This document shows, in pieces, positions 1 through 17,820 of a DNA stretch of 20,000 bases (positions are counted from its first letter, which is position 1; each line of letters opens with the position of its first letter). The translations under genes and the position numbers were made by a program. Below the pieces are notes generated by a model. The model had not been told where the DNA came from. It saw only the letters and a program-made list of their open reading frames with translations, and searched no databases. Origin of the DNA: Psammoneis japonica (taxonomy: Eukaryota); the NCBI GenBank assembly GCA_008632985.1, contig QPGO01000273.1, positions 59,200 through 79,199 on the forward strand, in the 5' to 3' direction.

Positions 1-348
1 CAACCTTGGGTTGAGCTGCAACCTGGGTTGAGCCTCACCGTGAGGCAGGTTGATGGGTGTCAGGGAGTGCTGTGCGAGGATTTTTCCCCTTCTTCTCTGC
101 ATGATGATGCAAGATTTCTCCATTGCTCAGCTTGTGTTGGCAATTGTTTGTGCCATTGTTGTTTCGTCATGCACCTGCTGTGCAACAGGGTTGTGGCCAA
201 TGTGCTGAACGCCGGTTTCCGGCAGTTGTCGGACTCATTCATGCGGGCGGTGCTGGTGTCCGCACGTTGAAGTTGAAGCAGGGCTACAACCTTCGCCCAT
301 GTAGAAATCTGCGCATTCGTCGTACTGGCACTTTTGAAAATTCTGCAT
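1..348 (-). pseudogene. Possible eroded gene of unknown function, divergent from the monooxygenase (5' part only in window)
   Basis: Minus-strand ATG at 348 is preceded by CAACACAAACAAC, an A/C-rich leader. The frame reads MQNFQKCQYDECADFYMGEGCSPASTSTCGHQHRPHE*VRQLPETGVQ...NTS*AMEKSCIIMQRRRGKILAQ... with two TGA stops (plus-strand 235-237 and 127-129), compatible with CGA->TGA. No homolog recognised. Confidence 0.3.
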
Positions 349-483
349 GTTGTTTGTGTTGATTGATTGAGTGATGGGTGACGGGTCGTGTCAGCAGTGA
401 CACAAGACACAACATCATCATGTTCTCCAAGGGAGGCCATGACATGCACAACTGAAAACCGTCAAAAGATTCTTTGATCGAAG

Positions 484-576
484 ATGATCCTTCCAGGACC
501 TTTACGTCTCCTTGCTTTGTCTGCCGCTGTGGAGGTGGCTAAGGCCGCTTCCCTTGTCGACCCATCTTCGCCATCT
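484..576 (+). CDS. 5' segment (signal peptide, 31 codons) of the DOMON/copper monooxygenase gene, cut off by the TIR element
   Basis: ATG at 484 gives MILPGPLRLLALSAAVEVAKAASLVDPSSPS, which looks like a signal peptide. Removing 577-3465 plus one ATCT copy joins it in frame to 3470 (SEPYSRWLDAF...GGMPGADI), giving a 569-aa reading frame. Confidence 0.85.
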
Positions 577-600
577 TCATCGTGGAACCCCGCAAATGCG
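577..600 (+). repeat. Left terminal inverted repeat of the TIR element
   Basis: 21 bp perfect plus 2 of the next 3 bp matching the reverse complement of 3442-3465. Confidence 0.92.
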
Positions 601-1517
601 GCAATTTTTTCACATTCGTGGCCGGTTTAAAGGAAAAGGGAAAAAAGGAGGGGATTCCGACAGTTGAACACACACACAATTTGACCATGCAACCAGGGCC
701 AGAGTTGCACTGGCTTCTTTTGGTCCAGGGTGGTTGCTGCAGGTGCAAAGAGTGGGGCACATTGCAGCTGCAGGAGGGCAACAATGTGACTCTGAGTGTG
801 TGCTGCCAAGCTGAGAAGCCCAGCTTGGTTGTGAGCCAAGCCCTGCCAGGCCTGCTGCCCTGGCTCCACAGCTGCTCCTCCCAGTGTGTGCATCAATTGT
901 TGAAGGAGCACCACATTGACTCAAAGGCTGTGTTTTGGGTGGAACAGAGAGGGAAAGAATTGTTGTCCTCTTGACTGGTGCTTGCTTCAGACCCCGCATC
1001 ATGAGCACAAGCTCCTCTTGAGAAATGAGTGAGAGACACTTCACACAGTCATTTTTGGTGCCTCTCTTTGGCTGCCCACTTGGCATTGCCAACAAACTCT
1101 TGAACCCAACCTCACTCACAATTTCTTCACCCTTCAACCACAAAAGCAGGCTCAACTTTTTGTTGGCTTTTTTGTGGCCAGGGATCACTGTTGCAGGCAC
1201 AAATGGTGGGCACATGCCATGTGGCTCTGCTTGGCAACAATGTGATGCCAAGCAAGCATGTGCCACCCACCAAGGAGCCAAGCAGCCCAGCTCAGCTTTG
1301 AATGGAGCTCCAGGACAGCAGCCAGCTCTTGGTGCTCCCAGCATGGCTTGCTTGCTCAAGCTGTGCTGCATTCACCCCACAATGCTCTGTGTTGTGGTGG
1401 CTTGTTGCAAGCCATGAGGAGTCTGCAGTTGGCCAGGGGCCCATTTTGTGAAGGCCACACATGTTGTGTGAGGGGCCAGGTGCAGAGATCTGCAACAACA
1501 GCTTGTGGCTGTTGGCA

Positions 1518-1805
1518 CCAAGTTGGCATTTGATTGGGAGTCAGTGCTGAGGGGCTGTGAAGTGGCTGTGCTGGGGTCAGGAGCCCAGCCAGCTCACACT
1601 CTCTTGTTGTCACAAATTGCTGTCACAGCTGTCTTTGCATTGCAACCAGCCAGGTGCAGTTGGTCCCAAGCTGGCACTTGATTTGGAGTGACTGCCAAGG
1701 AACTGTGAAGTGTGGGGTTGGGCAGTCCAGCCAGCTCACACTCTTTGCTGACAGCAGAAAGTGCTGTCACACCTGTCTTTGCATTGTGGTGCCAGCCAGG
1801 CACAC
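1518..1805 (+). repeat. Diverged tandem duplication (~148-bp period) inside the element
   Basis: CCAAGTTGGCATTTGATTGGGAGT...CCAGCCAGCTCACACTCT...TGCTGTCACAGCTGTCTTTGCATTG from 1518 recurs as CCAAGCTGGCACTTGATTTGGAGT...CCAGCCAGCTCACACTCT...TGCTGTCACACCTGTCTTTGCATTG from 1666. Confidence 0.85.
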
Positions 1806-2630
1806 ATGGCCAGAGCAGCCTTGGCACATCCTGCTGACAAAACTGGCAAAACAGCAGCTCTTGTGGTTGGGCCAGCATGCAGGCAGTCTGGGCACACCCC
1901 TGGGAAGTCAAACAGGAAGGAGGGCTCAGCATTGCCGCCAGTGCCAGAAACATGCTCAGCAGCTTGTCTTGAGAGAGATTCGAGCCCACACAGCCCCGAG
2001 CTGGGTGTCTTGGCTGGCAGGTTGGAAAGCATTCTTGAGCACAGTCTGGTGTGTGGGTGGCACTGTCACCAAGAGAGCTGCTCTGCAGAGGAAGAGGGAA
2101 ACAGGCAACAGCATTTTGCAAGAACTTTTTTTTTTCAATGGTTGGGTGGGATGGGGCAGCATCTGGACTTTGACGGAGCATTTGGCGGACAAAGCTTGAG
2201 CACAGAGAGCTGTCCACTCAAGCTCCACAAGTGGCACATTCCAAAGGTGACACCACACATGGGCCATTTGTTCATGCATCAACATGCATCAAGCTGCAAG
2301 TCTCACAAAAAACCACCACCAACCTTTCAACCAACCACCATGGAGGAGAGAACAGGGCAAGAGGTTCGAAACAAGAGTGATTCGTTGACTCTCTTCTTGT
2401 TTCATGCATTCAAGAGCTTCTTGTCCTTCTTGAACATTTGTTGTGCATTGTTGTCTCTTTTAATTCAAGTGCAAAGAGGAATCACTTTTCTTGTTTCTTT
2501 CTCTTGAGGGGTTGTTGGTTGTTGAGTGATGCAATTTTTGTTGTCACATTTTTGGAAATGTTGGCAAACCCGATCACTGGCTTGATTGTCAACCCATTCA
2601 CCATTTTAAGTCTCCATGGCATAAAATGCC

Positions 2631-3197
2631 ATAAGCCCAGAGCCCTCAATTGTTTCATCAAACGCAGTGCTTTGCACACGTCCAACATCAACTCGACTCA
2701 GTTGAAATCCCAATTTGTGGGCGATGAAAAATCACGAATGTCAAACAAATGGCTACTTTCGACACCAACATCCCCGAGTTCAATCCAAATGTGACGGTAT
2801 GCCTTACAGCTTATGACCATGACACATACAAGCATGCTTTATTGTTGTCATCGCGTACTCGTATTGAAAATGCCGATAGATCAAAGTTTACGAAAAGGAT
2901 GGAATACAAATTCATTTGTGTATTCATTAGTGGCATTGGAATAATGACATTAAGGGCAGAAGGGATCTAAAATCCTTATTCATCATTGACATTTCTGTAT
3001 TGCTCAGAATTTGAATTCTGACCACTGCCGTTAAGCATTTAGCTTTCTTTGTGTCGAAGTGTAAATGACACTTAACGATTTGCACTAATCATATAGCTGT
3101 CTCTGTGTCGAAGTGGAAATGACACTTAACGTTTTACACTATTCATTTAGCTTACTTTGACTCGAAGTCAAATGTCGAGTTTGGGTTATGGGCTTAT
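2631..3197. mobile_element. Candidate nested MITE (~567 bp)
   Basis: Imperfect inverted ends: ATAAGCCCAGAGCCC (2631-2645) vs the reverse complement of 3183-3197, ATAAGCCCATAACCC. A 2-bp AT or TA duplication is possible. The interior is AT-richer and non-coding with subterminal tandem repeats, and its composition differs from the flanks. Confidence 0.5.
3036..3177 (+). repeat. 54-bp tandem repeat, ~2.6 copies
   Basis: Units start at 3036, 3090 and 3144: CATTTAGCTTTCTTTGTGTCGAAGTGTAAATGACACTTAACG... / CATATAGCTGTCTCTGTGTCGAAGTGGAAATGACACTTAACG... / CATTTAGCTTACTTTGACTCGAAGTCAAATG. Confidence 0.85.
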
Positions 3198-3441
3198 CGT
3201 TATTCAGCCACGATCATGAAGTCTTTGCCGCAAATGCGCGGGGACCCTCCTGTAGAGGTCTACGCTCATTTTTGTATGTGGCATTGAAACATGTAGCCTA
3301 CATACGCAAAACTGGTACAGTTTCTACGAAAAAATTTCGAAAAAACGCCTAGTTCGCGAGATAGCTCTGGTACAAAACCTACGCAAATAGTCCCCATACA
3401 TGCACGTACAACTCTACGCATTTCCGGGTTACAGGTCCCCG

Positions 3442-3465
3442 CGTATTTGCGGGGTTCCACGATGA
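3442..3465 (-). repeat. Right terminal inverted repeat of the TIR element
   Basis: CGTATTTGCGGGGTTCCACGATGA followed by the TSD ATCT. Confidence 0.92.
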
Positions 3466-3469
3466 ATCT

Positions 3470-5086
3470 AGTGAGCCGTACTCGCGATGGCTTGATGCAT
3501 TTGGTTCAGACTACACCCATTCGACGTTTGTTGGCAACGGCAATAACGTTGCCGTCCACTGGCGAATCGAAAACGATATCCTTAACCTTGCAGCTGCGGC
3601 GGGAGCCAGCGGATGGATTGGCTTTGGCATTGCAGAGGCAGGTGGAATGCCCGGTGCTGACATCGCTGTGTATGAGGCGCTTGCTGATACGCTTGGGGAC
3701 TACCACGCCCTTACGTTCGGAAGGCCAGAGCTCGATAAATGTCAGGATGATTGGGAACTGATTAGATCAACCGCAGAGGACTCTTTCATTGCCTTTCAGG
3801 CCACCAGAGCCGCATCAACTGGCGACCCACAAGATCGGGATCTGTTTGATGATTCGGACCTGTCTCTTCCTGCCACTCCAATCATTGCAGCATGGGGAGA
3901 TGAGGATGAGCTCTCGTTCCATGGACCGAACCGGACCCGAGGATTTGCTCGATTTTATGGCCCGGAAGGTCTACAGGCGGGGGATGTTTCGAATTTGGAG
4001 GCTGAGAGCGACGGAAGCTTCATAGTCACGGCTCAAAACTTCACTATCCCCTTGGAAGAGACGACTTACCACGAGTTTTGTATCAACGCGACGGACTTCG
4101 AAAATGCACCTAATTTGACCGAAGCTGTCCACATTATTGGTGTTGATTTGGAAAGTTCCGCTGACGTGAATGGAGTTGACACTTCCAAGTATGTCCATCA
4201 CTTTGCGCTATTCGGTCGAAGCTCTACTTGCGACGATCAATTTACTATACCTGTCTTCTTCTACGGATGGGGCCCCGGCCAACCGCCATTTATCCTTCCA
4301 AGTGACGTTGGTCTTCCCCTCGGCGGCCAGAATGGCTTCCAGAGTTTGGGTCTCGAGATTCACTACGATAACGTCGACAAAGATGAAAATATTGTCGACA
4401 GCACCGGCGTCAGGTTGTACTACTCGAACGAGAAACGTGAGAACGAGGTGAATGCCATGATTGTTGGTGACACGTTTACTAGATTGAGGCCTCAGAGCGT
4501 TGGTTCGGGAAAAACCCAGCACACGTTTGACTGTCCATCCAGCTGTTCGCAGTCGAACCTACCGGGGCCCGTCACTATCTTCTCCGAGGCGATGCACACC
4601 CACGAGACTGCGACCAGGACGGTTAATCAAATAGTTCGGGATGGAGTGGTAGTACACGAGGCAGTTGTTGATTTCTGGGACTTTCGTCGAGCCGGAATCA
4701 AGCATGTTCAACAGGAACGCTACGAACTCCAGCCCGGAGATGTCTTCCGAACCACGTGCTACTACGAAAATAGCGACAACAGCACTGTGTTTGGCTTGGG
4801 TACTCAAGAAGAAATGTGTCAGGCACTTCTGTTCTACTATCCTGCCATTTCCCAATCTCACGGGTTTTGTGGCCCTGGACTAACTGAATTTCTTGGAGAT
4901 GAATTATGCGAGGCCTCGTACATGGGCACGGTGCAAGCCGAGGACGACTTTGGGCGTGCTTTTGGTTCACCGCAGGAGGAAGAGTGCTCAACCTCGCCCC
5001 CGTCTACGGCCACTAGAGGAGCTGCGTCACATGTTGCTGCTGCCTCACTGCTTCTGTCCTTCGCTGTTTTCATTTCTACCGCTTAA
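3470..5086 (+). CDS. DOMON domain + copper type II ascorbate-dependent monooxygenase (DBH/MOXD1-like), main coding segment; hydrophobic C-tail suggests a GPI or membrane anchor
   Basis: DOMON signature GWIGFGIAEAGGMPGADI. CuH-site motifs YVHHFALF and LEIHYDN, CuM-site motifs MHTH and QEEMC, plus YGWGPG and DSTGVRLYY. Ends with a Ser/Thr spacer and hydrophobic tail AAASLLLSFAVFISTA. The frame is open from 3470, 59 codons upstream of the supplied ORF start at 3647. Confidence 0.93.
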   Translation, partial: SEPYSRWLDAFGSDYTHSTFVGNGNNVAVHWRIENDILNLAAAAGASGWIGFGIAEAGGMPGADIAVYEALADTLGDYHALTFGRPELDKCQDDWELIRSTAEDSFIAFQATRAASTGDPQDRDLFDDSDLSLPATPIIAAWGDEDELSFHGPNRTRGFARFYGPEGLQAGDVSNLEAESDGSFIVTAQNFTIPLEETTYHEFCINATDFENAPNLTEAVHIIGVDLESSADVNGVDTSKYVHHFALFGRSSTCDDQFTIPVFFYGWGPGQPPFILPSDVGLPLGGQNGFQSLGLEIHYDNVDKDENIVDSTGVRLYYSNEKRENEVNAMIVGDTFTRLRPQSVGSGKTQHTFDCPSSCSQSNLPGPVTIFSEAMHTHETATRTVNQIVRDGVVVHEAVVDFWDFRRAGIKHVQQERYELQPGDVFRTTCYYENSDNSTVFGLGTQEEMCQALLFYYPAISQSHGFCGPGLTEFLGDELCEASYMGTVQAEDDFGRAFGSPQEEECSTSPPSTATRGAASHVAAASLLLSFAVFISTA

Positions 5087-5779
5087 GGATCGACGTCCGT
5101 CAGGATAGATGATGTTGATGCTTTTTTATTCTCTTCATGACATGCTCGTATTCATATCGCAAGATACAAGACCGTATTTGTGGTGTACCTCAGGAGGACG
5201 AGTGTCGCCTTCGTGTCATTTCCTTGCTCTGTGTGTGCCTGATTCTTCAAAACAAAACAAAATTGTGCGTGGGGACGCCGAATCCTCAATCCGTTGATGT
5301 GTAAAAGCAACCCTCTTTGCATGACACTACATAATAAAAAACATCGCAACAGAATAGTGCCGATTCAAAACAATGACAATGCTCGTATCTATGCTAGCTA
5401 ATGAAGGCAAAGTAGAGTAGACTCAACGCTACTCATACACAGAGAAAAATGCGAAAAAAGTCATTCACGGACAACGCACCGAGCTCGAAAACTGAACAGA
5501 ATGCCTCCACCCGCGGATTCTCCTGTGAAAGCACCAACTGTGATGATATACTATTGTGCAACGAGATAAAATCTCAGTGCTCTACATTATTTGTTAAACG
5601 CTGAAAGAAGAAAACCGATTATTGTTCTCCAGCACGACTCTCCCAACAACCCTAATGTCCCCCCCCCGGTACAACTTGGCACTCACGATGCGTCGTCCGG
5701 CAACCGACTTCTACACCAACAGAATGCTTCTCCGACCACAGCCTCGTCACTCCCCGCCCCGCCACACCGATCTTTCAAA

Positions 5780-8340
5780 CTCAAAATTGCGCCAAAGAAA
5801 GGCGTTGACGTTTGTGTGTGCCTTGCGATCCATCACCACCTTGCGAGAAATGTGACGCTTCATCTTTCAAAATCCATGCAATGCCACAGTTTTCACGTGC
5901 ACCACTGCAATCCTTGCTCATCGCCCTCCAGTCTCCACATTGCAGTCATGGCATGATTTAAAGCCACAACATCTGCACACAGTGGCTCCATTCACAGATG
6001 TCGCGCCGCATTTTGAGCGGCACAGCGGCGCAATGTCTGCACAAGGGTTCCTCACAACCTTTGCAATCAAAATTTCCCGCACACTTTCCGCAGTGGGTGG
6101 TGTGACAAAATCAACATCCTTGCAGACATTTGCCCCTGCCCTCCCAACAGAATGCCCCACCCATGCTGTTGTCTCAATCCATGGTGCAAGCGCCCCTTTG
6201 GTTTGTCCTTTGACAACTGCCGTTGGCTGTCAGCGCACAATGGTCAGCAGTGTGGCAAACACCCAGACTGTGATGATCGCAACTCTCATGAAGCAATGGG
6301 TTCTGACAAAGCTCCTCCCACACAGCATGTGATTGTGAATCATGAGGCATTGGCAACATCAAAAGATGTGCAGGTGCCCTTCTGGCTCCCCCACCTTTGC
6401 CTGAGGAGCAGCTGGTTTTGGCCAGAGTGCAAAGATGGGTGGTGTGCTGACTTTTGCAGATAAAATCAGGTTCAGTTTTGCACCCAAACCTGCAATCAAA
6501 GCAGAAGCACCACCACTTGGTCTGTTTGGGAATGACAACAATGCAGTGGATGCATTCCCGTCAAGAGGTGACAACACGCTGACAGCCTGTCCAGTGCAGC
6601 GGGCGAGCTTCATTTTGATGACGTGCCTGGAAAATGGCTTGCCAGCATTGGTGGCTCCTGATGATTCTGGAGATGATGATGATGACACACCAGGTCCTCT
6701 TGTTCCTCAAGTGGCAACAACAGCATGGACAAAATTGGTTCAAGCAATCATTGCAAGCACGAGATGCTTTCTCAATGTTTGTCAGACAGTGAATCGCATG
6801 ACTGCAACTCTGAAAATCCTGTGCTGTGCAGCAATTGTTTGAAGAGGCAGCCTGTCAGATTGCTCTTGGCAACTGCAACTCATCTTGACACACAACTTTT
6901 CCTGTTTTAAAGTCAACACATCTTTGGAGCATCCAATCAAATTCGGCATTGTCTGCATGACAAGAGTGAGCATGCAGTGGCAGGTTTCCTGGTTGCACTC
7001 CTTTGCCTGCCTTGCATGATGATGAGAGATTCAGTTGTCAGTGGTGCACACATCATTGCACATTGTTCAATGGCTTTTTGTGTCACATTGTGCGCACATC
7101 CAAAAGAAAACATTTTCCACAATCGCAAACCCCATGTCAAGAACAAAAAAAGAGCCACGACACAATGGCAAACATTGGGCCATGAGGATGCCCTGTGAAA
7201 AAGAAATCAAAGAGACAATGATGCTGCTGGAGCCACCACACTTGCGCCTGTCTGGGACATCACCGCTGTGTGATGTCTCATCCATTTGATCAACTTGTGA
7301 CAGGTTTTTCACCCAACACTGGCAAAATCTGCTTTGCATGTTGTTGTCCAATTTTTGAAATGACTGAGTCAGCAATCAACCACTGTTGCAGCACCACTCA
7401 ACTCTCCACATTTTGATTGGTGTGCTCCTTTGGTTTGTTGATGTGGAGTTAAAGAAAGGCGTTTGAAACTGCGCCAACGATGCCATGGTTGAGTTCACTT
7501 TTGCATCAAAAAGCATGTGCGGCAGCCACTCACACATCCCTTTGTTTGTCCAGACCTTCAAGATTGAACTTTGCATGCAAAATGTTTCTGACAGCAACTT
7601 TTACATTGGTTGTTTTCAAGTTGGACAATGCACAAAACATGTTGGTGTTGCGCGTGAAAAATGGGCAAACGCACACACCCAAGTCTGGTTGTCAGCAAGG
7701 CAAAAATGTCAAGGAACAATGGCTCAAGAATTTTTGTTGAATTGGTGCAGAAGGATCGCCTTGGATCTGGAAATGCTCTGCCTTGCTGGCAAAGCATGCA
7801 CAGCTGCCAAGCTTGAGACCAGCGCGACACTGCGCCCATGCCTTTGAACAATCAAGGACCCTTTTTGCAGAACAAAGTCTCTTTTGAGCTTGGCGACAAC
7901 ATTGCTTTTGTTTGACACTGTGTGTTTGCAGTGTGTCGAAGCATCTGGAAAAGGCAGGAAATGTGAGAGACCCGGGGTGGAGCCATTGAAGAGAGGACAC
8001 TTCAGCTTTTGAAAATTTGGTGGCGACACTTTGGAAAAAAGCGTGCTGCAAGTCAATTGTGAAAGGAAGGAGTTTGCACTCAACAAGTCAATCATGAAAG
8101 GGGGGGAGTCCCACAAAGTTTCCTGCACTGCGGCATGTCACACTTCTTGTCCTGGGCTGTGAGGACTGTGGTTTCCCTGCTGGAAGCCCTCAATGAATTT
8201 CAGTCTTGCAGCATGACATGTGCCTGCTGACGCCACCACACAACTCATGTGAACAGATGATTCGCTCCAAAGAGCCAGACAAAAGAAGGTTGGTGGCAGG
8301 AAAATGCTGTGCAATTTAAGAGCCCTGTTGTCATGTTGTC
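5780..8340. other. TpA-depleted (partly CpG-depleted) degenerate tract, probably decayed TE or pseudogene sequence
   Basis: Only a handful of TA dinucleotides in ~2.5 kb, mostly TTAA. ORFs essentially lack Tyr and are Cys/His/Gln-rich. A fragment LPALVAPDDSGDDDDDTP (~6640-6690) suggests former coding sequence. Boundaries are approximate and no element family was recognised. Confidence 0.6.
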
Positions 8341-8431: not shown

Positions 8432-8504
8432 CTCTCCGTGCTGGGATCGAACCAGCGGCCTCAAGATAACTGTAGCAGTTAAACGGTTATAACAGTCTCG
8501 CGCT
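8432..8504 (-). pseudogene. 5'-truncated, intron-containing tRNA-Asn(GTT) copy
   Basis: Minus strand: AGCG CGAGA CT GTT A [22-nt intron TAACCGTTTAACTGCTACAGTT, plus-strand 8468-8489] A TCTTG AGGCC GCTGG TTCGATC CCAGC ACGGAGA G. The intron is at the canonical 37/38 position. The 5' acceptor strand and D-arm are absent. Confidence 0.8.
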
Positions 8505-8533: not shown

Positions 8534-8607
8534 CTCTCCGTGCAGGGATCGAACCTGCGACCTCAAGATTAACAGTCTTGCGCATCTACCAGCTGAGCTA
8601 ACGGAGA
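8534..8607 (-). tRNA. tRNA-Asn (GTT), intronless
   Basis: TCTCCGT TA GCTC AGCTGGTA GATGC G CAAGA CTGTTAA TCTTG AGGTC GCAGG TTCGATC CCTGC ACGGAGA G. It has a 7-bp acceptor stem, perfect anticodon and T stems, and A/B boxes, with one extra T in the 3' D-stem strand. Confidence 0.92.
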
Positions 8608-10565
8608 CGAATGTTTTGTTGGAGGCGGGGAGCAATTTCACCAATGTGATCACTGTTGGTGTTCCACGAAAAAGTGCCAAGTAAGTTGCACATCACACAC
8701 AGACAAACGTAAAAAAAAATCATTTTTTGATCACAACAAACGTCACACCACTCTCACTGCCTCTCGGTGTTATTTCTCATCAACCAAGCCACACCCAGAG
8801 ACATGCAGGGGCATTTTAGAAATGTCTTTGAATGCTTGACAAGGCCACAGTGCGAAAGAGATGCGTTCCAGGTCCAGGTGGGACCTCGCACTGCTGAACT
8901 GTGACATCGACAGTTTTTTGAATCGCGTCGTATGTGGCGCACGTACATTTCTACGTGATTTTGGCAAAATTTTGCATCATTGCAGTGCAATTGTCAGGCG
9001 ATCCATTCAACAACTTTTGACATTTTTTTCTTCTATGCTGGGCTGCGCGCAAAACTGTCTCACCTGCCACCTCTTGCTCCAAACCCAAAGCTGGTCAAAT
9101 CAAAAATTTGAGCACACCTTGCACACCAAAATCGACCATTTTCTTTCGATCTGTCGGTGGACCTGATGCAAAAAACGATCAGAAAGTCGATTTTTTGATG
9201 CAGAGGGTTTTCAAAAACTCAAAATAGACCCACTCTGCTCATTTTCGAGAATGGGTCCGCCGACAGTTCATTTTCTTGTTGCCCCCAGTGCAAACATGCG
9301 CAACTGTCAACCAAAAATTCCATGCATTTGGTTTTGAATGAGCACTTCCATCTTGTTCACTTTTGCCCGCAGCAACCACACTGTCTCCTGCTGACAGTGT
9401 CTCTGAATGCACGAAATGACCCCGTTGTGTGCACCCCAAATGTCACACACAAATTTGTGTGCACGTCATTTCATGTGAATGCCTGCACAAAATGCACATC
9501 CCTTCAACTTTGAACGTTTCTAGTTCACTCTAAACATCTGCCAGAGACCACAGCAAAGGCACCATTGGAAAGAGCAGATTCTCAGCTTTCCATCGATGTG
9601 CCGTTTGTTCCCCACGTGCAATTTGCGCTGGAGATGCAGTCGTGGCAGTCCAACCGGTTTTATGTCCAGCACAGCGCACGCCATTCTCGAGTGTCTTAAG
9701 AATGGCGCAGGGCAGGCACATTGTCCAAAACTTTGAGTGCGAACAGAGACATGTGCACTGCAAACTTGGCCGTTCATTTCATGTCGAAGACAAATGCATC
9801 CATCAACCAGACTGTGAACTGCAGAGCTCGCACGTAGAATTCTGCGGGGCAAATGTCACAAAAAGTCCCACCTGGGACTGGAACCCGTCAAGAGTGAATG
9901 AAGTGCGCACTGCCAATGAGAGTTGGTGAAAATTGACGAACAAAACATTGTTTTGTGTTCCTGTGAAATCGAGAAAGGTTGTTTGTTTGCACAGATTGCC
10001 TCTTTCCCCAAACGCTGCCCGGCTCTGCCGAACTGAGCTGACAGAGAGTTGACTGTTGTTGCTTGTTCAGCATTGTTTTGACATTCAGTTGCTGATTTGT
10101 TCAAGTTTGGCAACCAAGCCAAACATTTTTCCAGAAGGCAGAATTTGCGCTCGCACACAACACGCCGGCGCACATTCGCGTGAAACCTTCAGGACAACAA
10201 CTGACATGCGATTGCACACAGATTGACTTCGGACAATCATGCTGGACTTTTTGCAATTGTTGGTGCTTTCTTTGGGTGGCTGAAATGAGGTCCAGGGTCC
10301 AGGGCCACCTCTCACAGGTGTCATCTGTCTGCTCATCATCAAGGGGTCAGGGAGTGCGGCTGCTTTCTTGTTTGTTGGCGGGCACGTGGCGCGTGGCACA
10401 AAAATGGTCTTGAGACAGCTGGAGAAGCAAGTTGTGCCAGTGCTGTGTGTGAAAAAAACAAGTTGCTGCTTTGTTTTGCAATCTGCCCACCAGAGCTTTG
10501 CCCATTGCCCCCTCCCCACCAGCAGCAGCAGAGATGCGCTGCTTGCTGGAAAGCCAGTGGCCAAC

Positions 10566-10786
10566 CCGCTCTCTGACGGCAGCTGCCAGGAGCACTTTGA
10601 GCACCTGGGGAGTGACCTTGCATGTCTCTGACCCACAAATTGATGCCTGCCACACTGGTGCTTTGAAGAAAAATGACACATGGAGACTTCTGCACCTGGG
10701 AAGCCACTCTCAGATGGAAGCCTCCAGAAAAGCCCTTTGAGTGCCTGGGCAGCAATGGTGCACATCTTTGACCCACAATGTGATGG
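10566..10786 (+). pseudogene. Fossil protein-coding internal repeat (two ~46-codon-period units) of an unknown protein
   Basis: Unit 1 PLSDGS..FEHLGSDLACL*PTN*C and unit 2 PLSDGS..FECLGSNGAHL*PTM*W. Many differences are synonymous third-position changes (TCT/TCA, GAC/GAT, GGC/GGA, GGG/GGC, AGT/AGC, CTC/CTT), so this frame was under coding constraint. Unit 2 contains a frameshift. Confidence 0.7.
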
Positions 10787-12086
10787 CCGTTCTTGCACTG
10801 CTGCTTAAAAATGTTGGAAGTTGAGGTGCTGTCAAAGGCTTTTGTGTGATCTGGGTTGTCCAGGAGCCCTCCACAGGGCACTGAGTCTTGAAAGTTGCAG
10901 ACAGGAAACTCACCCAGGAGCACTCCTCCTCAGCAGGTTGATGCCCTGGGACATTGGCCTGGCCTGTTTCTTCCACCTGGACAGAGATTGTCCCACAATG
11001 AGCACACAGCTTTGGGCACTCAAAATGCATCCGCACATTTGTGGGCTGGGTGGGCTGGCACTGCACTCACCCTTGTGCTGGCAACAAAGAGACGTCACCT
11101 GGCCGCCAGTGACACAGCAGGGTGTGAATGTTGACAGTGCCCTGGCACCAGCTTCATTGCCATTTTGGTGCACAAGCCTGCACATTTGAAAAGCTCCATG
11201 TGAGTCACTGGAAAGTGCTGTGTTGCTGCAAGAGTGGCAAGAAGAAGCTGATTTCTTCTCGAGATGGCTCATGAACAAGGTGAAAAATGGACAGAAACTG
11301 CCTTCTGACAGAATTCAAACAATGTTGTGAAATTTTTGTCATCTCTTTCACGACCACACCACAATGGGTCAAGCCAAAACATGCCCAAACAAGATGCTGT
11401 GTGCAGGGCACCTCTTTGTGTTGTGCAGCTGTGTGAAAGAGGGGCACGTGCATGAAGCCACAGGCCTGGTGTTTTGTCTCTGCTCGTCTTCAGTCATCTG
11501 CAAGAAGTGCATGCTGGGATTTTGTGTGGAAGGCTTGCTCACCACAAATTGTGAAACCAACAACACTTTGAACTTTTTTTGTGAATCCAATGAAGAAATC
11601 TCAGTGGTGTGTTTTGTTTTGTGGGAATGACAGAAAAGAAAGTGCAGCAACAAGTCATGGCAGAGAGGAGCACCACCATTGCTTTGGGAATGCAGTCAGC
11701 ATTGCACATTGGGGTGAATGACAGAAATGAAGATGCAGGGGTGAGAAGTGTGTTGGGTGACACTGTGTTCATGGCAAACATGGGCAGTTTTTTTTACAAT
11801 GCCACAACACGCCAATCATCTCTCTCAGTGTTGAAACATTGACCCAACAATGGTTTTGTTCTCTTGACCTGTTGTTTTGTTTTTGGCTTTGTCCATTTTC
11901 CACAGAAATCATGCGGCATGGCTCAAAGCAGCACTGCATCATCATGTGGCATGACTCAAGGTGATGTGCCAGTTTTGTGCAGTGTGACTCAAGAGCTGGG
12001 GCTCTGCCCACCTCTGAACATTGAAGTGGCTGATGAGAGTGAGGCTCAGCTTGATGCTGCAAGGGCAGGAGAATGTGTTGGCACCA

Positions 12087-12106
12087 GCTGCTGCTGCTGC
12101 TGCTGC
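12087..12106. repeat. (GCT)n microsatellite
   Basis: GCTGCTGCTGCTGCTGCTGC seen directly. Confidence 0.8.
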
Positions 12107-14987
12107 CACTGTGACTCCTGGTGCTGGTGGTGCCGCTCCTGCTGCAACTTTCAGTTTCACTCATGTTTGCATTTGTGCTCTGGTCCATGCATGTGTTCTG
12201 GAGACCAAGTCTCTCTGAGTTCTTGTGTGTGCTGCTGTTGACATTGGCATGATCTTGATGCATCCTTTGCATGCCAACTGCACTCTTTTGGTGCAGAGCA
12301 CACAAAGAACTGGCAGTGCAACCCAGGTTTGTTGACATGATCAGATCTGTTGTTTAAGACATGCAACCCCTCCTGCAGACTGAGGGGCCATTCATCATGC
12401 TTGCTTGCAATGGTGGAGCTGGCCTTCAACCAGGCAAAACAGAGAGATGCTGTCAGAGCCAAAACACATTGTTGTTTTGCATTTGAAGCACACTTTTGTA
12501 AAACTGGAAGGCAGTGAATTGGCTGCCATCTGCCCAAGCCAACAGAGAATGGAGTTGGTCTTTTTGGTGAAAAAACAGGCGCCACCCATTTGGGTTGGGC
12601 AACATGAGCCACAGTGCAACCTGTTGAGACCATGTTGTTTGGCAAACATCTTGCACAGCTGTTGCAGCCAGGGTGGCTGCAGCTCAATCTCAAGTGCTTG
12701 GTTTTAGCTTTGATCATCAAAGTGCCATTGCAGGCAGAGCCAATGAGTGAAGTGGCACAAGCTTCATCAGAGAGGGGGCATTTGACTGGGAGGCAGGAGC
12801 GGCATTGGCAGCAGAGTGAGTTGGCACAGTCACAAGAGCAAAACAACAAGAGAGTTGGAGAGGTTGCAACTGAACTCAAGAGCAATGGCAGAGGCATGCT
12901 GGCAGTGGGAGGCTGAGTCTCAAGAATGATGATGGAAGTGGTGTTGTGCAGCAGGTCACAAGCAGCAGCCAATGCAGAGCAGTCAAGAGCCAGTGTTGCA
13001 GCTCCAATTTAGATGGCTTCAACAGCAAGAGTGGGTGCATTGGGGCAACAGGAGAGTCATGTTTCAAACACTTTAAATGAGAGCACTGAGTCAGCAACAT
13101 TCAACATGCAATTGTGTGCCTCAACCCAATGTGTGTGTTTGATTTCCAGCGCATTTGCTCACCAGGCTCAATGCCATGTCAGTCATCCCAGACCTCTTTG
13201 TGCTCTCAGACATGTCATCTTAGAAGGACCCTCACCCCTGAAGCTTCTTGTCTTCTTTGATTCAAGAGGCTCCTCATCTTCCTTGGTGTAAAAAATGGCT
13301 GTCTGTCATCACAGTCATTGTTCTTGTCAGCAGAGTTGTCGCTGACAGCGGTCTTGCCAGCCATTGGCTCACTTGAAGCTGCATCTGAGATGCTTGTTGC
13401 CAAGGAGGGAGATGGGTTGGTGTTGCTTGACAGGGCACTTGCAACATTGGCAGAAGGTGAGTCAGTGTTGGCAATGCCAGCAGAGGGCAAATCAAGAGCT
13501 CTTGTGGGTGGTGGGGATCAAAAGAAGAGCTGCTTGTTGGTGGAGCAAGCAGCTTGGTCATTTTTGAGGCTTTCACCTTCTTGTGCATGGGTCTTTCTGC
13601 TGCTGTTTTTTTGTTGTGTTGGCATCTTGGCAGCTGTCCAGAACTTGCAAGGAGAGCTGAAAAATGTGGTTGGCCACTTTTGGTGGAGAGCAAGGCCAGC
13701 GGCACTTTCTTTGGTTGGCTTCAGAGCACAAGAAGCAGACATGCTGGCAGCAGAATCATTGCTGTGATTTTTGGCAACAAGGAATCTGACTGTTGATGGA
13801 GGCTCCTTGGTGCTTGTGTGCTTCATCTCACTTTTTTCATGCCTCAGCATGTTGGCACAAAAAATTCAGCCAGGGTCAATGGGCTCCCATCATCTACAAG
13901 CTGAAAGCATCGAAACAGCATGCACAATGTCAAACACAGCAAAATCAATGAACAAATGAGAGAAAATGCAAAAAAGAAAAAAAAGAGAGAAATGCAGGAG
14001 TTGAACACAAGTTCTTGCCATGGTGTTGAGTCAGCATGACTGTTTGTCTGGACCCAATGTCTGCCCACTGTCCATCAACATTTTCATGCACAGCACTGCA
14101 AAGTTTTCTCTCACTGGTGATCGCATGGTGATTCTTGCAGGAAAAGTTGTCTCTGCAGAAGGCCATCAAAAGAAAGAAGTTCTGCTCTTTTTGGGTCAAT
14201 GTGGGCAGCTGAGAAGTGTGCTTTGATCCTGCATTTTCACCCCAACATCAAACAGACATTTTTTGAAACCTCATGTGGGGTTGAATTTTCTTGTTCTCAC
14301 TGCTGGATCTTTGTGCAGCTCAATGGTTGAGCAGGCATTTGATCATGCTGTGTGGCTCTGTGGTTCCTTGCAGATGTCCTGGCCCAGCTGCAAATGCAAA
14401 GAATCACAAACTCAAAAATCTGCAGGAACATGCCAACAACTTGGTTGACTTTGGAGTGGCACATGGCAGAGAGGACCTTTTCAAGAAAGAAAGCTCCTTG
14501 TGTAATTTCAGCAGCGTGCTGCTGCATTTCATTTGTGGCTGCCAGATCTCAACTGCCAGCATTTTTTGCACCACACATGAAGAGCAATCCCATCATTTGT
14601 TTGAGAGGGAGAAGAAGAAATAGAAAGCTGAGTTTTGAAATGAGTGCCCCCACCCTGCTTTTTCAAACTGACCAGCTCTGTAGACTTCCTTGGCAGCTGA
14701 CACCAATGTCTTCTCTCTTGACAACATTTTTGACATTGGTCTTAACTGAGTGCAGCCTTGCAGTGCTGCCCAGCCACCAAAGAGGTTGTCCTTGCCAGAA
14801 CCTGAAAGATCTGCCACATGCCTGGGATGTAGAAAATTGCAACATTTGAAGCTGTGGCTCTTGTCCATGTGCTTGTGAAGACACTTGCAAGACAAGGAAG
14901 AAGCATGATGAAGAGGCACACACGAAGCCCCGAAGTTGAAGCTGTTGAAGTGTGTTGAGGCTTGGAAAAGTGAGTGCACTCAACGAA

Positions 14988-15030
14988 TGTTGTTGCTGTT
15001 GTCGTTGTTGTTGTTTTGTTGTTGTTGTTG
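14988..15030. repeat. Imperfect (TGT/GTT)n microsatellite
   Basis: TGTTGTTGCTGTTGTCGTTGTTGTTGTTTTGTTGTTGTTGTTG seen directly. Confidence 0.8.
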
Positions 15031-15409
15031 CATTTGGGCTTGGACAAGGGCTTTCTTGAGCTCTTCTGTGTTGCCAAAAAATGAATGCAAAGAAATGGTG
15101 GCTTGCAGAGTGCTGTGTCAAGAACATCATGTGAGGCACTGTCCAATCCATCCATGGCACTCCAATGGTGGGCAATTGGAGGTTCATGGGCAGGAGGTGC
15201 CAGGAGACTTTCTGTGTGCATGAACATCACAACAATTGCTCATTGATGGCAAGGCACATCACACTGATGATCAAAAATGCATTGAGGAGGAGGCAGCTGT
15301 GATTTCAATGATGCCTTTCATGATGTGGATTGTGGAAGGATCCAGCCTCAATTTCCCATGTTCTCAAAGTCATCCATTCACTGTCAGTCACGCTGTGCTC
15401 TCCAAAATG

Positions 15410-15424
15410 CCCCCCCCCCCCCCC
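15410..15424. repeat. C15 homopolymer
   Basis: 15 consecutive C near the right edge of the degenerate tract. Confidence 0.85.
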
Positions 15425-15966
15425 TTGCTCTTTGTGATGAAGATTCTGTCAAACTTTTGCATCAGCAAATGTACCCAAAATGCAACCAATTGGACCCTCG
15501 TTCCTGTCTCAAACAAATTTGCTGTGGTTTGTCCTGTCTTTGGTGGGTTCCTGAAAGTGATGACAAGGACGACAATGGAACCTGGTTCATAGATTTGCCT
15601 TTGGAACGGATGGATGAAGACGTGATTTCTGACTGAGGAATAAGAATGGAGCAATGCTTTCGAACTTAGCTCCTCACAACGGCCTTGTCGTTAAGGAAAC
15701 TATTTGCAGTGCCCTGAAAGCAACTCGTAAGAATTGGCGCCTCCACAGTGAAAAGAGGATGTCAATCTCTCTCTAACACTTGAATGCGAAAAGCGCAGTT
15801 GCAAAACAATTCGATTCAACTGCAAATGATTGTGAGAGGTTGTACGATCTTGATTCTACTATAGTTTGACTTTGACAATTGACCTGTAAAACAAATTTTA
15901 CTCTCTAGAGAGCGAGCTATTCAGTGCGGTAGAAATAGCATGTGCTCGCACAATGCGCTCCGCTAT

Positions 15967-17484
15967 TTATTTCCGATTGTTGTACTTTTTCTTTTTGAAC
16001 TTTCCACCTCGTTGATTCGGCAACGCACCACCTCGGCCACCGGATCCTCCGGCATAGCCTCGCTTGATTTCTCGTTTGACTGCACTTTCCAATCCATCTT
16101 CATCATCGCTCTGTCGTCTCTTTTTGTGACGACGTCCACCACTCCCCTTGGAGGCTGCCAATTGTTCCTTGAGTTCACGAGTCGCCAGCCGTTGCGCCTC
16201 ACAAACGCGTTCCAGCAAAATCAACACGGTTTCTTCATCCAGCTCGTACTCGGGTAGCTTTTTCCCCAACAATCCCTCCAAACGCTGGTACACTTCCACA
16301 TCGTATTGAGTCACCATGGCAATGGCCTTTCCAGCTCGTCCCGCTCGAGCCGTCCGTCCGACTCGATGGATATAATCCTTACCGTGTCCTGGTAAATCAA
16401 AATTGATTACAACATCGACGCTGGGGATATCCAATCCTCTCGCCGCCACGTCGGTACAAATCAAGATATCCCGTCCTCCGCTTTTGAACTTGTGCAAGGC
16501 ACCCAACCGCTTGGGTTGACTCATTTGACCGTGCAAACAAATGGCGGGGAATCCCAAATTTCGAAGCATCAGGGCGAGTCGCTGCACGTTATTGCATGTC
16601 TCGCCAAAGACGAGAATCGATTGTCCGGCGTGTTCATTAATGAGATAGGTCAAGTAACAATCCTTGTATTTGGAAGGACACAAAATGTACGATTGAATCA
16701 GTTTGGAAGGAGTGGAGAATTTGGTGCTGACTTCAATCTTGACTGGATCGACAAGCGACGCTCGTTGTAACTTTTGTACCTTGGAAGTCATGGTGGCACT
16801 AAACAACATGGTCCGACGTCCCTGGGACGCATCGGGAATAACGTTTAGGATTTCATTCAATTCTTCTTCAAAGTCCAATCCAAGCATGCGATCGGCTTCA
16901 TCCATGACGAGGTAACGAATCTTTTGCAAATGAAATCCCTTTGTGTTGGTCAAGTGATCGACGAGCCGCCCCGGCGTGGCAACGACAATGTGAGGATTCC
17001 GTGCCAATGCAATGGATTGGCTGGCCGAATCGACACCACCCACAATACAAACCGACGTGGCACCCATGCTCTGCCCCAATGCTTGAACGACCTCGAGAAT
17101 CTGAAAGGCTAATTCACGCGTCGGGGTTAGAATGACTGCAAAGACGGCGCCCCGCACGGGATTTTGCAACAATTCTTGTAGAATGGGAATGCAAAAGGCA
17201 CCTGTCTTTCCCGATCCCGTCTCGGCCAATCCAATAATGTCTCTGCCCTGTAATGCGTGAGGGAGTGTTTCTTGTTGAATTTTGGAACAGTACTTCCAAC
17301 CCGCAAGCGACGTTGCTTCACAAAGAGTTTCACAAACTCCCACCGAAGCAAAGGTTGCTTTTGACATGATTCCATCTTCTTCTTCATCATCATCCGAAGA
17401 TGATGACGATGACGCTGCTTGTTCTTCTTCTTCATCCGAAGATGATGGCGACGCTTGTTCGTTCTCGTCTTGCTTCTTGGACAT
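15967..17484 (-). CDS. RRP3: ATP-dependent rRNA DEAD-box helicase RRP3/DDX47, 505 aa, intronless
   Basis: GRDIIGLAETGSGKTGAF, LTPTRELAFQI, ATPGRLVDHLTNTKGF, DEADRML, SAT, HGQMSQPKRLGAL, TDVAARGLDIP and YIHRVGRTARAGRAG motifs, typical of the DDX47/Rrp3 subfamily. Acidic N-terminus and basic C-terminus. Start chosen at ATG 17484 (MSKKQDE). Confidence 0.95.
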   Translation of the reverse strand: MSKKQDENEQASPSSSDEEEEQAASSSSSSDDDEEEDGIMSKATFASVGVCETLCEATSLAGWKYCSKIQQETLPHALQGRDIIGLAETGSGKTGAFCIPILQELLQNPVRGAVFAVILTPTRELAFQILEVVQALGQSMGATSVCIVGGVDSASQSIALARNPHIVVATPGRLVDHLTNTKGFHLQKIRYLVMDEADRMLGLDFEEELNEILNVIPDASQGRRTMLFSATMTSKVQKLQRASLVDPVKIEVSTKFSTPSKLIQSYILCPSKYKDCYLTYLINEHAGQSILVFGETCNNVQRLALMLRNLGFPAICLHGQMSQPKRLGALHKFKSGGRDILICTDVAARGLDIPSVDVVINFDLPGHGKDYIHRVGRTARAGRAGKAIAMVTQYDVEVYQRLEGLLGKKLPEYELDEETVLILLERVCEAQRLATRELKEQLAASKGSGGRRHKKRRQSDDEDGLESAVKREIKRGYAGGSGGRGGALPNQRGGKFKKKKYNNRK

Positions 17485-17820
17485 GGTTTCAATCGAACAA
17501 GAACAAAAAAAAGTGAGCAGGAAATCAAAATGTGGGATGAAAAATCGGTGGCGCAAGCGCGAAGCGGGAAATGTGTGAACACAAAGTTCCTGATTCCATC
17601 AAACTGTTTCCGTGCGTCAGTCGGTCGTTCCCTCCCGTCGTCTGACAGCACGCTCGCCCAAACGAAGAACGAAAGTTTTTTCTGAGACTGTGGCCATGGC
17701 GGTCGGAACGCCGTCGCTTAAATCCCTGTCTGCTCTCGCGTTCTTATAAAGTGCCTGGTGTACAGTGTAACAAGAGACAGCACAGTGGAGCAAGACACAA
17801 GCCGTGCTGTGAAGGATTGC
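17485..17820. promoter_or_regulatory. Short divergent (bidirectional) promoter region between RRP3 and the pseudouridine synthase
   Basis: 336 bp separate the head-to-head start codons; a CTTATAAA TATA-like motif lies at ~17743-17750. Confidence 0.5.

Follow-up and report, generated by a model that had tools for sequence, protein, structure and literature searches.

The window, a 20,000-nucleotide stretch of contig QPGO01000273.1 from Psammoneis japonica, carries a copper monooxygenase gene split by two nested transposable elements, a 251-bp MITE and, inside it, a 2,630-bp non-autonomous transposon. The gene starts with an ATG at position 484. Deletion of positions 577–3469 restores the uninterrupted frame that the preliminary description had predicted, comprising 1,710 nucleotides and 569 amino acids with a single terminal stop. 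The features of the locus, in window coordinates, are:

484–576, + strand: 5′ coding piece of 31 codons, probable signal peptide and linker (N-terminal homology; single copy)
573–576, + strand: left copy of the MITE 4-bp TSD, ATCT
577–599, + strand: left part of the MITE, its left TIR; bases 592–599 double as the left copy of the inner 8-bp TSD
582–583, + strand: candidate donor GT inside the TIR, in weak context; with AG 3470–3471 it gives an in-frame intron of 2,890 nt
600–3229, + strand: inner element with imperfect short TIRs, GGCAA...TTGCC (copy comparison; 8-bp TSD)
628–630, + strand: in-frame stop for the host gene, within the inner element
700–2600, no strand: TA/CG-depleted interior, 1 TA and 9 CG in 1,901 nt, common to other copies
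3032–3193, + strand: subterminal tandem repeat, three units of 54 bp, at the inner element's right end, which is not eroded
3230–3237, + strand: right copy of the inner 8-bp TSD
3238–3465, + strand: right part of the MITE, including the right TIR (3443–3465); at least 40 places match most of this piece at 85–100%
3466–3469, + strand: right copy of the MITE 4-bp TSD, ATCT
3470–5086, + strand: remaining coding sequence with DOMON, Cu2_monooxygen, Cu2_monoox_C and a hydrophobic C-terminal tail (Pfam; ligand motifs)
about 3542–3862, + strand: DOMON (Pfam)
about 4025–4384, + strand: Cu2_monooxygen (Pfam)
about 4514–4858, + strand: Cu2_monoox_C (Pfam)
4196, 4199, 4361, 4595, 4601 and 4814, + strand: copper-ligand codons, the first five His and the last Met (motif alignment)

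The rejoined host protein has the DOMON domain and catalytic core named in the preliminary description, and its three domains all exceed the curated Pfam cut-offs. The six copper ligands are all present, in a His/His/His motif, which we take to supply the CuH ligands, and a His/His/Met motif, presumably the CuM ligands. The VHHF, EIHY, MHTH and EEMC motifs are kept across 11 aligned proteins, and HY, HTH and EEMC align to the closest solved structure, human DBH (PDB entry 4ZEL, E 8.8e-25). Domain order and copper ligands are those of the DBH/MOXD1-type copper type II ascorbate-dependent monooxygenases (PF03351, PF01082, PF03712), from which the host gene differs in its interruption after codon 31. 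The nearest relatives are 51–53% identical, and diatom-associated proteins 34–35%. As judged from its sequence, the product is likely to be a secreted, membrane-anchored dopamine-beta-hydroxylase/MOXD1-like copper monooxygenase.

The open-reading-frame track misses the N-terminus, as had been noted, since the stop-to-stop frame at 3365–5086 lacks it and has its first Met at 3647. The product of 484–576 aligns gap-free with P0001–P0003, the three closest homologues, at their N-termini (shuffle P 0.0001–0.005, six of six tests); homologues thus use a related N-terminus, and the assignment of this piece to the gene stands. It is single copy in the assembly, which holds one close host-gene locus, other matches being 27–30% identical. 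The core of the N-terminus is moderately hydrophobic (a mean of 1.9 across 9 residues), the signal peptide being judged by hydrophobicity and homology alone. Elsewhere in the window, an Rfam scan found only a tRNA, at 8534–8607.

The insert had been read as a single TIR transposon. The TIRs and the flanking ATCT pair are real, but they belong to the outer of two nested elements. The outer inverted repeat (577–599 and 3443–3465) matches at 22 of 23 bases and lies directly between the two ATCT copies. The element has the properties of a MITE: it is short (250–256 bp across the family), with TIRs, a 4-nt TSD, many uniform copies and no transposase. The family has at least 40 long matches in the assembly, and the TSD is 4 nt at 27 of 29 other loci (5 nt at one, with one unresolved by the script), so the ATCT repeat is no chance match. 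The window MITE differs from its nearest copy at five positions, three of them private; its right 228 bp have normal TA and CG content (o/e 1.0–1.3 in 3200–3465), and together with its TSD it measures 255 nt, a multiple of three.

The inner element sits in the left TIR of the MITE; it has ends of its own and is flanked by an 8-bp TSD (592–599 and 3230–3237). Its matches span more than 2,300 nt in 42 of 51 cases, a count that, like that of the MITE, is a lower bound; an 8-bp TSD is present at 10 of 19 other copies. Three long frames within it (610–1371, 1561–2199 and 1752–2507) match no Pfam model, show nothing significant against the candidate helper protein described below (best E 0.068), and exist because TAA and TAG have been lost. 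Insertions of nested MITEs and non-autonomous DNA transposons into exons are known, and the present case shares with them the short TIR element, the TSD, the near-identical copies, the second element inside and the gene disruption; there is no difference of principle, the pre-eroded interior of the inner element being an addition. The nested TSDs suggest the order of events, in which the MITE would have inserted first at ATCT, duplicating it, and the 2,630-bp element would then have entered its left TIR, duplicating 8 bp and bringing the stop at 628–630. This two-step course at the host locus, as opposed to the arrival of a ready-made composite, depends on the absence of a second MITE-plus-inner composite, and none was found among the scored matches.

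The interior of the inner element (700–2600) is almost devoid of TA (o/e 0.01) and CG (o/e 0.07), whereas the host coding sequence on both sides has no stops and the normal composition reported earlier (TA o/e 0.58, CG o/e 0.99). The preliminary description attributed heavy mutation to the interior of the insert as a whole; the depletion is real, but it belongs to the inner element, is inherited and spares that element's final ~600 bp. All 19 other copies have the same depleted interior (TA 1–8, CG 9–23). Its near-identical sister copies show that the inner element had lost TA and CG from its interior before it arrived. It is scarcely credible that an old insertion was eroded in place while the gene escaped a mutator that was very fast or sharply bounded. 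Such a reading can draw on the mutator that does hit inserted copies, two of which have lost most of their right-end TAs (36 in the last 700 nt reduced to 21 in one and 4 in the other), and on the single private change of the window copy, a TA>TG. Independent decay, however, would randomise TG versus CA in each copy, whereas ten copies at other loci are 98–100% identical to the window copy. The final 700 nt of the window copy still hold 36 TA, and no copy is less eroded there. The interior common to the sister copies refutes erosion in place, and a very fast mutator acting at the host gene, one of the options raised earlier, is not needed.

Among 12 young inner-element copies, 42 transition events fall on 80 TpA bases and 26 on 1,275 other T/A bases, most of them stemming from two copies. 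Three MITEs are also eroded, with 2–6 TA compared with 17–21 in others; all three lie in TA-poor flanks, but flank TA content is no predictor of MITE erosion overall (Spearman 0.27, P 0.16, 29 loci). TpA hypermutation of integrated viral DNA has been published for Bigelowiella natans (bioRxiv 10.64898/2026.01.13.699255), where T/A>C/G transitions are confined to TpA and patchy between copies, as among the inner-element copies. Here, in contrast, DNA transposons are hit, with CpG loss alongside, and the pattern comes from copy comparison rather than from mutation-accumulation lines. Diatoms are absent from the main text of that preprint, and a literature search for a diatom TpA mutator found nothing relevant.

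Compared with 11 young copies, the window inner element has one private substitution in 2,630 bp (position 1450, TA>TG), and it differs from its nearest copy at seven positions. Given ten near-identical sister copies and a single private substitution, the insertion is young. The proposal that a non-autonomous copy, mutated beforehand, was moved in trans and inserted recently is thus supported by the interior shared with 19 other copies and by the one private substitution. At divergences of 1/2630, 7/2630 and 3/251, the probability that the host coding sequence acquires no nonsense change is 0.98, 0.84 and 0.46, respectively. With so little divergence an intact coding sequence is expected without selection, and the suggestion that the gene is still expressed and under selection finds no support. 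The coding sequence would still be intact as too little time has elapsed. The locus is very probably a recent two-step knockout, after codon 31, by two nested non-autonomous transposons, and on the sequence the interrupted allele is likely to give no functional enzyme.

Removal of the insert by splicing, as an introner-like intron in a living gene under selection, is very unlikely. At least 12 in-frame GT–AG pairs would remove the whole insert. The pair GT 582, in the TIR, and host AG 3470–3471, for example, would preserve the frame without loss of host sequence and yield a protein of 570 residues, one more than the uninterrupted frame encodes. With the MITE alone in place, a GTATGT donor at 3274 could likewise have been joined in frame to an acceptor at 3390 or at 3471, and the MITE insertion by itself may have been leaky. 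The donor context at 582, GTGGAA, is nevertheless far from the usual GTRAG-type consensus, and an intron of 2.9 kb is very long for a diatom. An in-frame AG lies within 15 nt of the right end in just 9 of 54 other MITE copy-orientations, and the intact coding sequence can be explained without selection. The MITE was also considered as an introner family and rejected: of the 26 empty sites, 8 fall within an open frame of at least 600 nt, and by inspection none is clearly mid-CDS of a host gene.

The read contigs bear on a further reading, that of a heterozygous or subclonal insertion, with the enzyme supplied by an intact allele and only the broken haplotype displayed in the assembly. The reads come from one sample, possibly the assembly's own. 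Diatoms are vegetatively diploid, the read contig and the assembly disagree at 504 (A>G) and at 84, so that two versions may exist, and read contigs drop rare variants. Across the left junction, however, a read contig covering 1–628 runs unbroken through 576/577 at depth 64, compared with 60 in unique flanks. A common empty allele would be expected to break this contig, and its even depth argues against one. At the right junction the read contig has just 26–30 letters on the transposon side, below the 31-letter rule. No empty-site joint is present in the read contigs among the 15 of 17 joints shown, or at 98% identity, although such contigs speak for presence rather than absence; the assembly has no second close locus. 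We regard a heterozygous or subclonal insertion as improbable, though somewhat less so than splicing, and retain the young knockout.

Movement in trans, which had been proposed, is supported by longer relatives with the same ends that carry a transposase-like frame. Two 6.25-kb elements, C115 and C361, have the ends of the inner element, which are all that it has in common with them, an 8-bp TSD and an open frame of ~1,490 codons; the DDE transposase encoded there would have moved the inner element. In this candidate helper the D, D, DxxH and E motifs are conserved over 22 aligned proteins (D417, D487, D902xxH905 and E1054), with a helical region, giving the C/DxxH RNase H DDE with helical insertion of IS256/Mutator-like transposases. 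The best transposase fold match of the helper model is ISCth4 of the IS256 family (Z 12.1, r.m.s.d. 3.6, 219 aligned). A WRN-type 3′–5′ exonuclease is inserted in the catalytic region, and Foldseek with the whole model returned exonucleases only, among the matches listed. For the MITE, the C98 element (5,094 bp) has MITE-type TIRs, a 4-bp TSD and a DUF6589-like ORF in pieces, which matches no Pfam model and scores 0.96 to DUF6589 clusters in Atlas, with recognition below threshold. DUF6589 has been linked to Academ. No clearly competent helper was found, the known copies being fragmented (C98) or TA-eroded (C115 and C361), with 10 of 13 conserved Tyr codons reading Cys or His.

The 8-bp TSD of the inner family and of its 6.25-kb relatives falls in the IS256/Mutator-like range of 8–11 bp (PMC6446971). 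The eukaryotic Mutator (MULE) group proper was rejected: none of the 22 proteins matches Pfam MULE/Mutator models at E≤1, the TIRs are short and imperfect, and Atlas MULE rows reach just 0.75–0.77. Kyakuja-Dileera-Zisupton (KDZ) was likewise rejected, with none of the 22 matching a KDZ model at E≤1, although an 8-bp TSD is given as typical of Zisupton and Dileera in the available text of PMC12730594. For Merlin only the 8-bp TSD fits, the IS1595-type PF12762 giving no match in the genome or the helper. In metagenome contigs, no TIR/TSD pair was found around the best locus of a related element (L087), and none of 16 loci compared for end similarity gives a significant result. A search covering sources other than subscription journals and Repbase found no published description of a family of the inner type.

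The inner family also forms tandem arrays. Its head-to-tail junctions have a 6-bp spacer in 17 of 19 cases and the full 8 bp in none; in 12 of 14 checkable cases the spacer repeats the 6 nt with which the right flank of the array begins. In each of seven independent arrays the junction lacks the same two bases, the final two of the TSD. Two contigs have one spacer in common that is absent from their readable flanks, one array mixes spacers, and copies within an array are near-identical. One junction in the read contigs is missing from the assembly; such contigs cannot separate a circle from a tandem. A fixed-length, flank-derived spacer at joined ends is likely the mark of elements that move by copy-out/paste-in.

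Tandem dimers have reportedly been seen for IS256. ISCth4 and the IS256 family, as described in the parts of PMC7780238 and PMC3219604 used here, share with the inner family the 8-bp TSD, the junction with a flank-derived spacer (recovered lengths 6–8 bp, with 6 bp giving the highest efficiency in vitro) and a C/DxxH DDE with helical insertion. They differ from the inner family in its eukaryotic host, its ~1,490-codon transposase with a WRN-type exonuclease in the catalytic region, its short, imperfect TIRs, its spacer always taken from the right flank where readable, and its evidence from tandem junctions. Among eukaryotic DDE transposons, KolobokP likewise forms multimers, and its authors liken the way it excises to copy-out-paste-in and consider a circular intermediate (PMC9587614); its multimers share long direct repeats, and the available text does not describe a fixed 6-bp flank-derived spacer.

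The 6-bp spacers and the ISCth4-like fold point to copy-out/paste-in chemistry in a eukaryote, a reading to which we give roughly even chances. The left end would attack 6 nt beyond the right end, producing junction circles or sister-chromatid dimers, and integration would produce 8-bp TSDs, the same geometry as in ISCth4. The tandem arrays would be explained if, in the manner of IS256-family elements, the left end becomes joined to DNA 6 nt past the right end. Alternatively, a second cut-and-paste insertion at the same target, loss of 2 bp and unequal crossing-over could have built the arrays with no copy-out. Double insertion gives rise to P-element dimers in which the TSD lies between the two units, and hobo dimers commonly have TSD deletions (bioRxiv 10.1101/158386); the sole eukaryotic MULE examined in vitro makes cuts in both strands and forms flank hairpins (PMC5499845), and the near-identity of copies within arrays fits later expansion by recombination. 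Double insertion predicts an 8-bp TSD at the junctions, however, which none of the 19 shows; nor does it readily account for the constant loss of the same two bases, for the spacer common to two contigs yet absent from their readable flanks, or for the array with mixed spacers. We consider it less probable than copy-out/paste-in.

As for the split host gene, it is very probably an unremarkable case of recent knockout by transposons. The paradox of a clean coding sequence beside a ruined insert dissolves once the sister copies are seen to share that interior, and the caution that follows is that TA/CG erosion of an insert gives no date for its insertion. The inner family is the part worth following. 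According to PMC7780238, DNA transposition in eukaryotes proceeds mostly by cut-and-paste, and the one biochemically studied MULE follows that route (PMC5499845). It is an even question whether the inner family is an unclassified eukaryotic IS256-like DDE family with a WRN-type exonuclease (DUF6729-associated) that uses copy-out/paste-in and is still active here, with this gene among its newest targets. A family still active in this way would spread copies whose interior offers the host TpA/CpG mutator nothing more to hit. With its 8-bp TSDs, 6-bp flank-derived junctions and ISCth4-like fold, it would make copy-out/paste-in transposition in a eukaryote testable.

The copper monooxygenase gene, which begins with an ATG at window position 484, is interrupted by an insert with ATCT on either side (573–576 and 3466–3469) and a terminal inverted repeat (TIR; 577–599 and 3443–3465, one mismatch). 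The right end of the insert (3228–3469) matches at least 40 places in the assembly at 85–100% identity. All 29 of the other loci fetched, two of which have common flanks and may be a single locus, are miniature elements (MITEs) of 250–256 bp, with the duplicated target site (TSD) being 4 nt in 27, 5 nt in one and unresolved in one. In the window, the MITE comprises 577–599 and 3238–3465, which sum to exactly 251 bp. Between them lies an inner element (600–3229; 2,630 bp) bounded by an 8-bp duplication (592–599 and 3230–3237). It has at least 51 matches in the assembly, at least 42 of them longer than 2,300 nt, both being lower bounds with 37 of 133 candidates scored; at least ten other copies are 98–100% identical. 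Among 19 other copies, ten have an 8-bp TSD, two adjoin a tandem neighbour and seven have no TSD. Judged from the sequence, the insert is two elements, one nested in the other; the preliminary description of one TIR transposon with an ATCT TSD had the repeats and the ATCT right, but had missed the 2,630-bp second element.

Removal of 577–3469 leaves 569 codons with a single, terminal stop, as described earlier. The part downstream of the insert (3470–5086) contains DOMON, Cu2_monooxygen and Cu2_monoox_C domains, each exceeding Pfam cut-offs, and among solved structures the best relative is human dopamine beta-hydroxylase (E-value of 8.8e-25). The His-His, His, His-x-His and Met motifs, which we take to be the ligands, are kept in an alignment of 11 proteins, bearing out the claim that all copper ligands are present. 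Relatives that bear names are diatom-associated, which makes a diatom the probable host. The assembly has one close locus, the remaining matches being 27–30% identical, and window 1–575 is single copy. An ORF caller would begin the protein at Met 3647 and, as had been noted, miss the N-terminus. In a check set beforehand, BLASTP alignments of the read-through protein with its three closest homologues start at residues 23, 9 and 9 and run gapless over the break. When its final 9 or 23 residues are taken, the upstream piece scores 20 to 36 against these homologues (shuffle P of 0.0001–0.005 in six of six tests), and the frame entering from the MITE scores −5 to −33. By this homology, 484–576 is the correct N-terminus.

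The TA/CG-poor interior is common to all 19 other inner-element copies compared. Seven substitutions separate the window copy from its nearest sister; against 11 young copies it has one private substitution (TA>TG at 1450) and two single-base gaps. The window MITE and its nearest sister disagree at five sites, three of them private; both copies of the inner TSD carry one of these, TA>TG at 598, which is therefore older than the second insertion. On these comparisons the erosion came with the element and the insertion is young, and the earlier suggestion of a pre-mutated copy moved in trans was right. Because 3.8% of possible substitutions create a stop, the neutral chance of a stop-free coding sequence is 0.98 (one private substitution), 0.84 (seven to the nearest inner sister) or 0.46 (three private in the MITE). 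A clean coding sequence is thus no evidence of selection, and the idea that the gene is still under selection is unsupported.

In read contigs from one sample, one contig spans 1–628 at depth 64, bridging the left junction, and a second starts at 3440 at depth 60, with fewer than 31 letters on the transposon side. The proposed search for an empty-site allele thus shows the insertion in reads, and for this sample suggests that an empty allele is uncommon. Position 504, one of only two TpA steps within the 5′ coding piece, is G in the read contig and A in the assembly (TTA>TTG, synonymous), which might reflect heterozygosity, an error in the assembly or a mutator of TpA reaching host coding DNA.

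Rescue of the gene by splicing out the insert is possible on paper, with 12 in-frame GT–AG pairs (the neatest 582–3471), and with the MITE alone in place, a better donor (3274) could have preserved the frame. However, a stop of the inner element (628–630) now lies upstream of that donor, the donors are poor against the consensus, a suitable in-frame AG arises by chance in nine of 54 MITE copy-orientations, and other MITE copies have no clear coding positions. Three of 26 MITE sites (L009, L018 and L026) lie 21–33 codons inside long open frames; those of L018 and L026 are upstream of the first Met, and so are probably 5′ UTR or promoter insertions. The observation as put forward holds up, though nothing about it is out of the ordinary: the nested insertion is young and the allele likely null.

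The DNA directly before the ATG (1–480) is TA-poor yet single copy in the assembly, and a reverse-transcriptase (RVT_2) frame lies further upstream (C274 55,700–59,200; L071); the promoter region may lie inside an eroded domain. Two large TA/CG-depleted blocks (5750–8250 and 9000–15500) are probably transposon relics. A short un-eroded island holds the tRNA gene and, 102 nt before it, a 36-nt partial repeat (8432–8467; 92% identical). The two divergent genes have normal TA/CG.

Other genes in the window
8534–8607, minus strand: tRNA gene (Rfam)
15967–17598, minus strand, and 17722–19425, plus strand: divergent host genes, DEAD-box helicase and RNA pseudouridylate synthase

Among 12 young inner-element copies, the 80 TpA bases carry 42 distinct TA>TG/CA departures from the majority and the 1,275 other T/A bases carry 26; for the 68 CpG bases the count of CG>TG/CA departures is ten, compared with 14 on 1,207. 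Two copies contribute most TpA events. In three of 29 MITEs most TAs are gone and CGs retained. The TpA changes match the TpA-only hypermutation (T/A>C/G) that a preprint describes in Bigelowiella natans (bioRxiv 10.64898/2026.01.13.699255), and from this one preprint such a mutator is already known.

Exact end patterns of the elements picked up longer relatives that could supply transposase in trans (helpers), and 15 places were fetched.

Candidate helpers
L066, 488–4960, plus strand, and L070, 3003–7472, minus strand: open DDE transposase frame of ~1,490 codons, including a WRN-type exonuclease, in 6.25-kb elements
L056, 257–5350, L060 and L058: 5.1-kb elements with MITE-type TIRs, 4-bp TSD and a DUF6589-like ORF in pieces

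The two 6.25-kb elements are 97% identical and have inner-element ends and 8-bp TSDs. The motifs LS.DH, TTDRCC, QDIEH and RGTSALEG, kept in 22 aligned helper-type proteins, give a D-D-DxxH-E pattern, and a 3′–5′ exonuclease is located inside the frame. Its Atlas neighbours bear DUF6729 together with such an exonuclease (0.94); 24 database relatives are 26–52% identical, with a transposase named in none. In a structure model of residues 400–1110 (mean pLDDT of 73.8), fold matches 1–25 are all exonucleases; the first transposase match is ISCth4 at rank 26 (Z-score of 12.1, r.m.s.d. of 3.6, 219 aligned), with foamy virus integrase below it (Z-score of 10.4). Profiles of MULE, KDZ and Merlin gave no match. 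Helper copies are TA-eroded, with Cys or His at ten of 13 conserved Tyr. The likely helper of the MITE is an element 5,094 bp long, whose TIRs are related, whose TSD is 4 bp and whose DUF6589-like ORF is broken into fragments; by Atlas's own measure the DUF6589 link is weak. The 5.1-kb elements have an N-terminal motif that looks RING-like by eye. Elsewhere, an 84%-identical half inner-element copy (L067:425–1721) and a 6.1-kb helper relative are placed back to back, and another ~2.2-kb non-autonomous family bears inner-element ends (L064, L069, L065 and L068).

The inner family also forms tandem arrays.

Inner-family arrays
L073–L086 (C2, C15, C23, C56, C84, C87, C90, C123, C423, C467): head-to-tail, up to five copies, 6-bp right-flank spacers

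A search of the assembly with a pattern that lets right and left ends lie 0–12 nt apart gave 19 junctions, with spacers of 6 nt in 17, 5 in one, 7 in one and 8 in none; the reversed control pattern found none. In seven arrays with a readable outer right flank, 12 of 14 spacers are identical to the flank's first 6 nt; of the remaining two, one lacks a base in a T run and one is foreign. A single 8-bp TSD encloses four arrays (C23, C56, C90, with five copies, and C123), in a fifth the TSD agrees except for one A-run base, and two lack a left TSD that matches. Outside these 14, four of five junctions (on two contigs) have one common spacer. Read contigs add a junction absent from the assembly (depth 24.6), whose spacer, CAAATG, is the right flank of an inner-element copy on C169. 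The left end of the inner family would thus make an end-to-flank strand transfer, and circles may be the transposition intermediate. Circles of maize Mu are known. A double insertion would leave a complete TSD at the junction (bioRxiv 10.1101/158386); Muta1 is cut-and-paste (PMC5499845) and KolobokP is likened to copy-out (PMC9587614), and TSD ranges come from PMC6446971, PMC12730594 and PMC10045372. ISCth4 produces 8-bp TSDs and junction spacers of 6–8 bp from the flank of the recipient end, 6 bp working most efficiently (PMC7780238), in a pathway set out in PMC3219604. ISCth4 and the inner family, the latter as read from its DNA, thus both have an 8-bp TSD and a 6-bp flank-derived spacer. 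The chances are about even that this IS256-like junction signature reflects copy-out/paste-in transposition in a eukaryote, and the signature of the inner family is what is new here.
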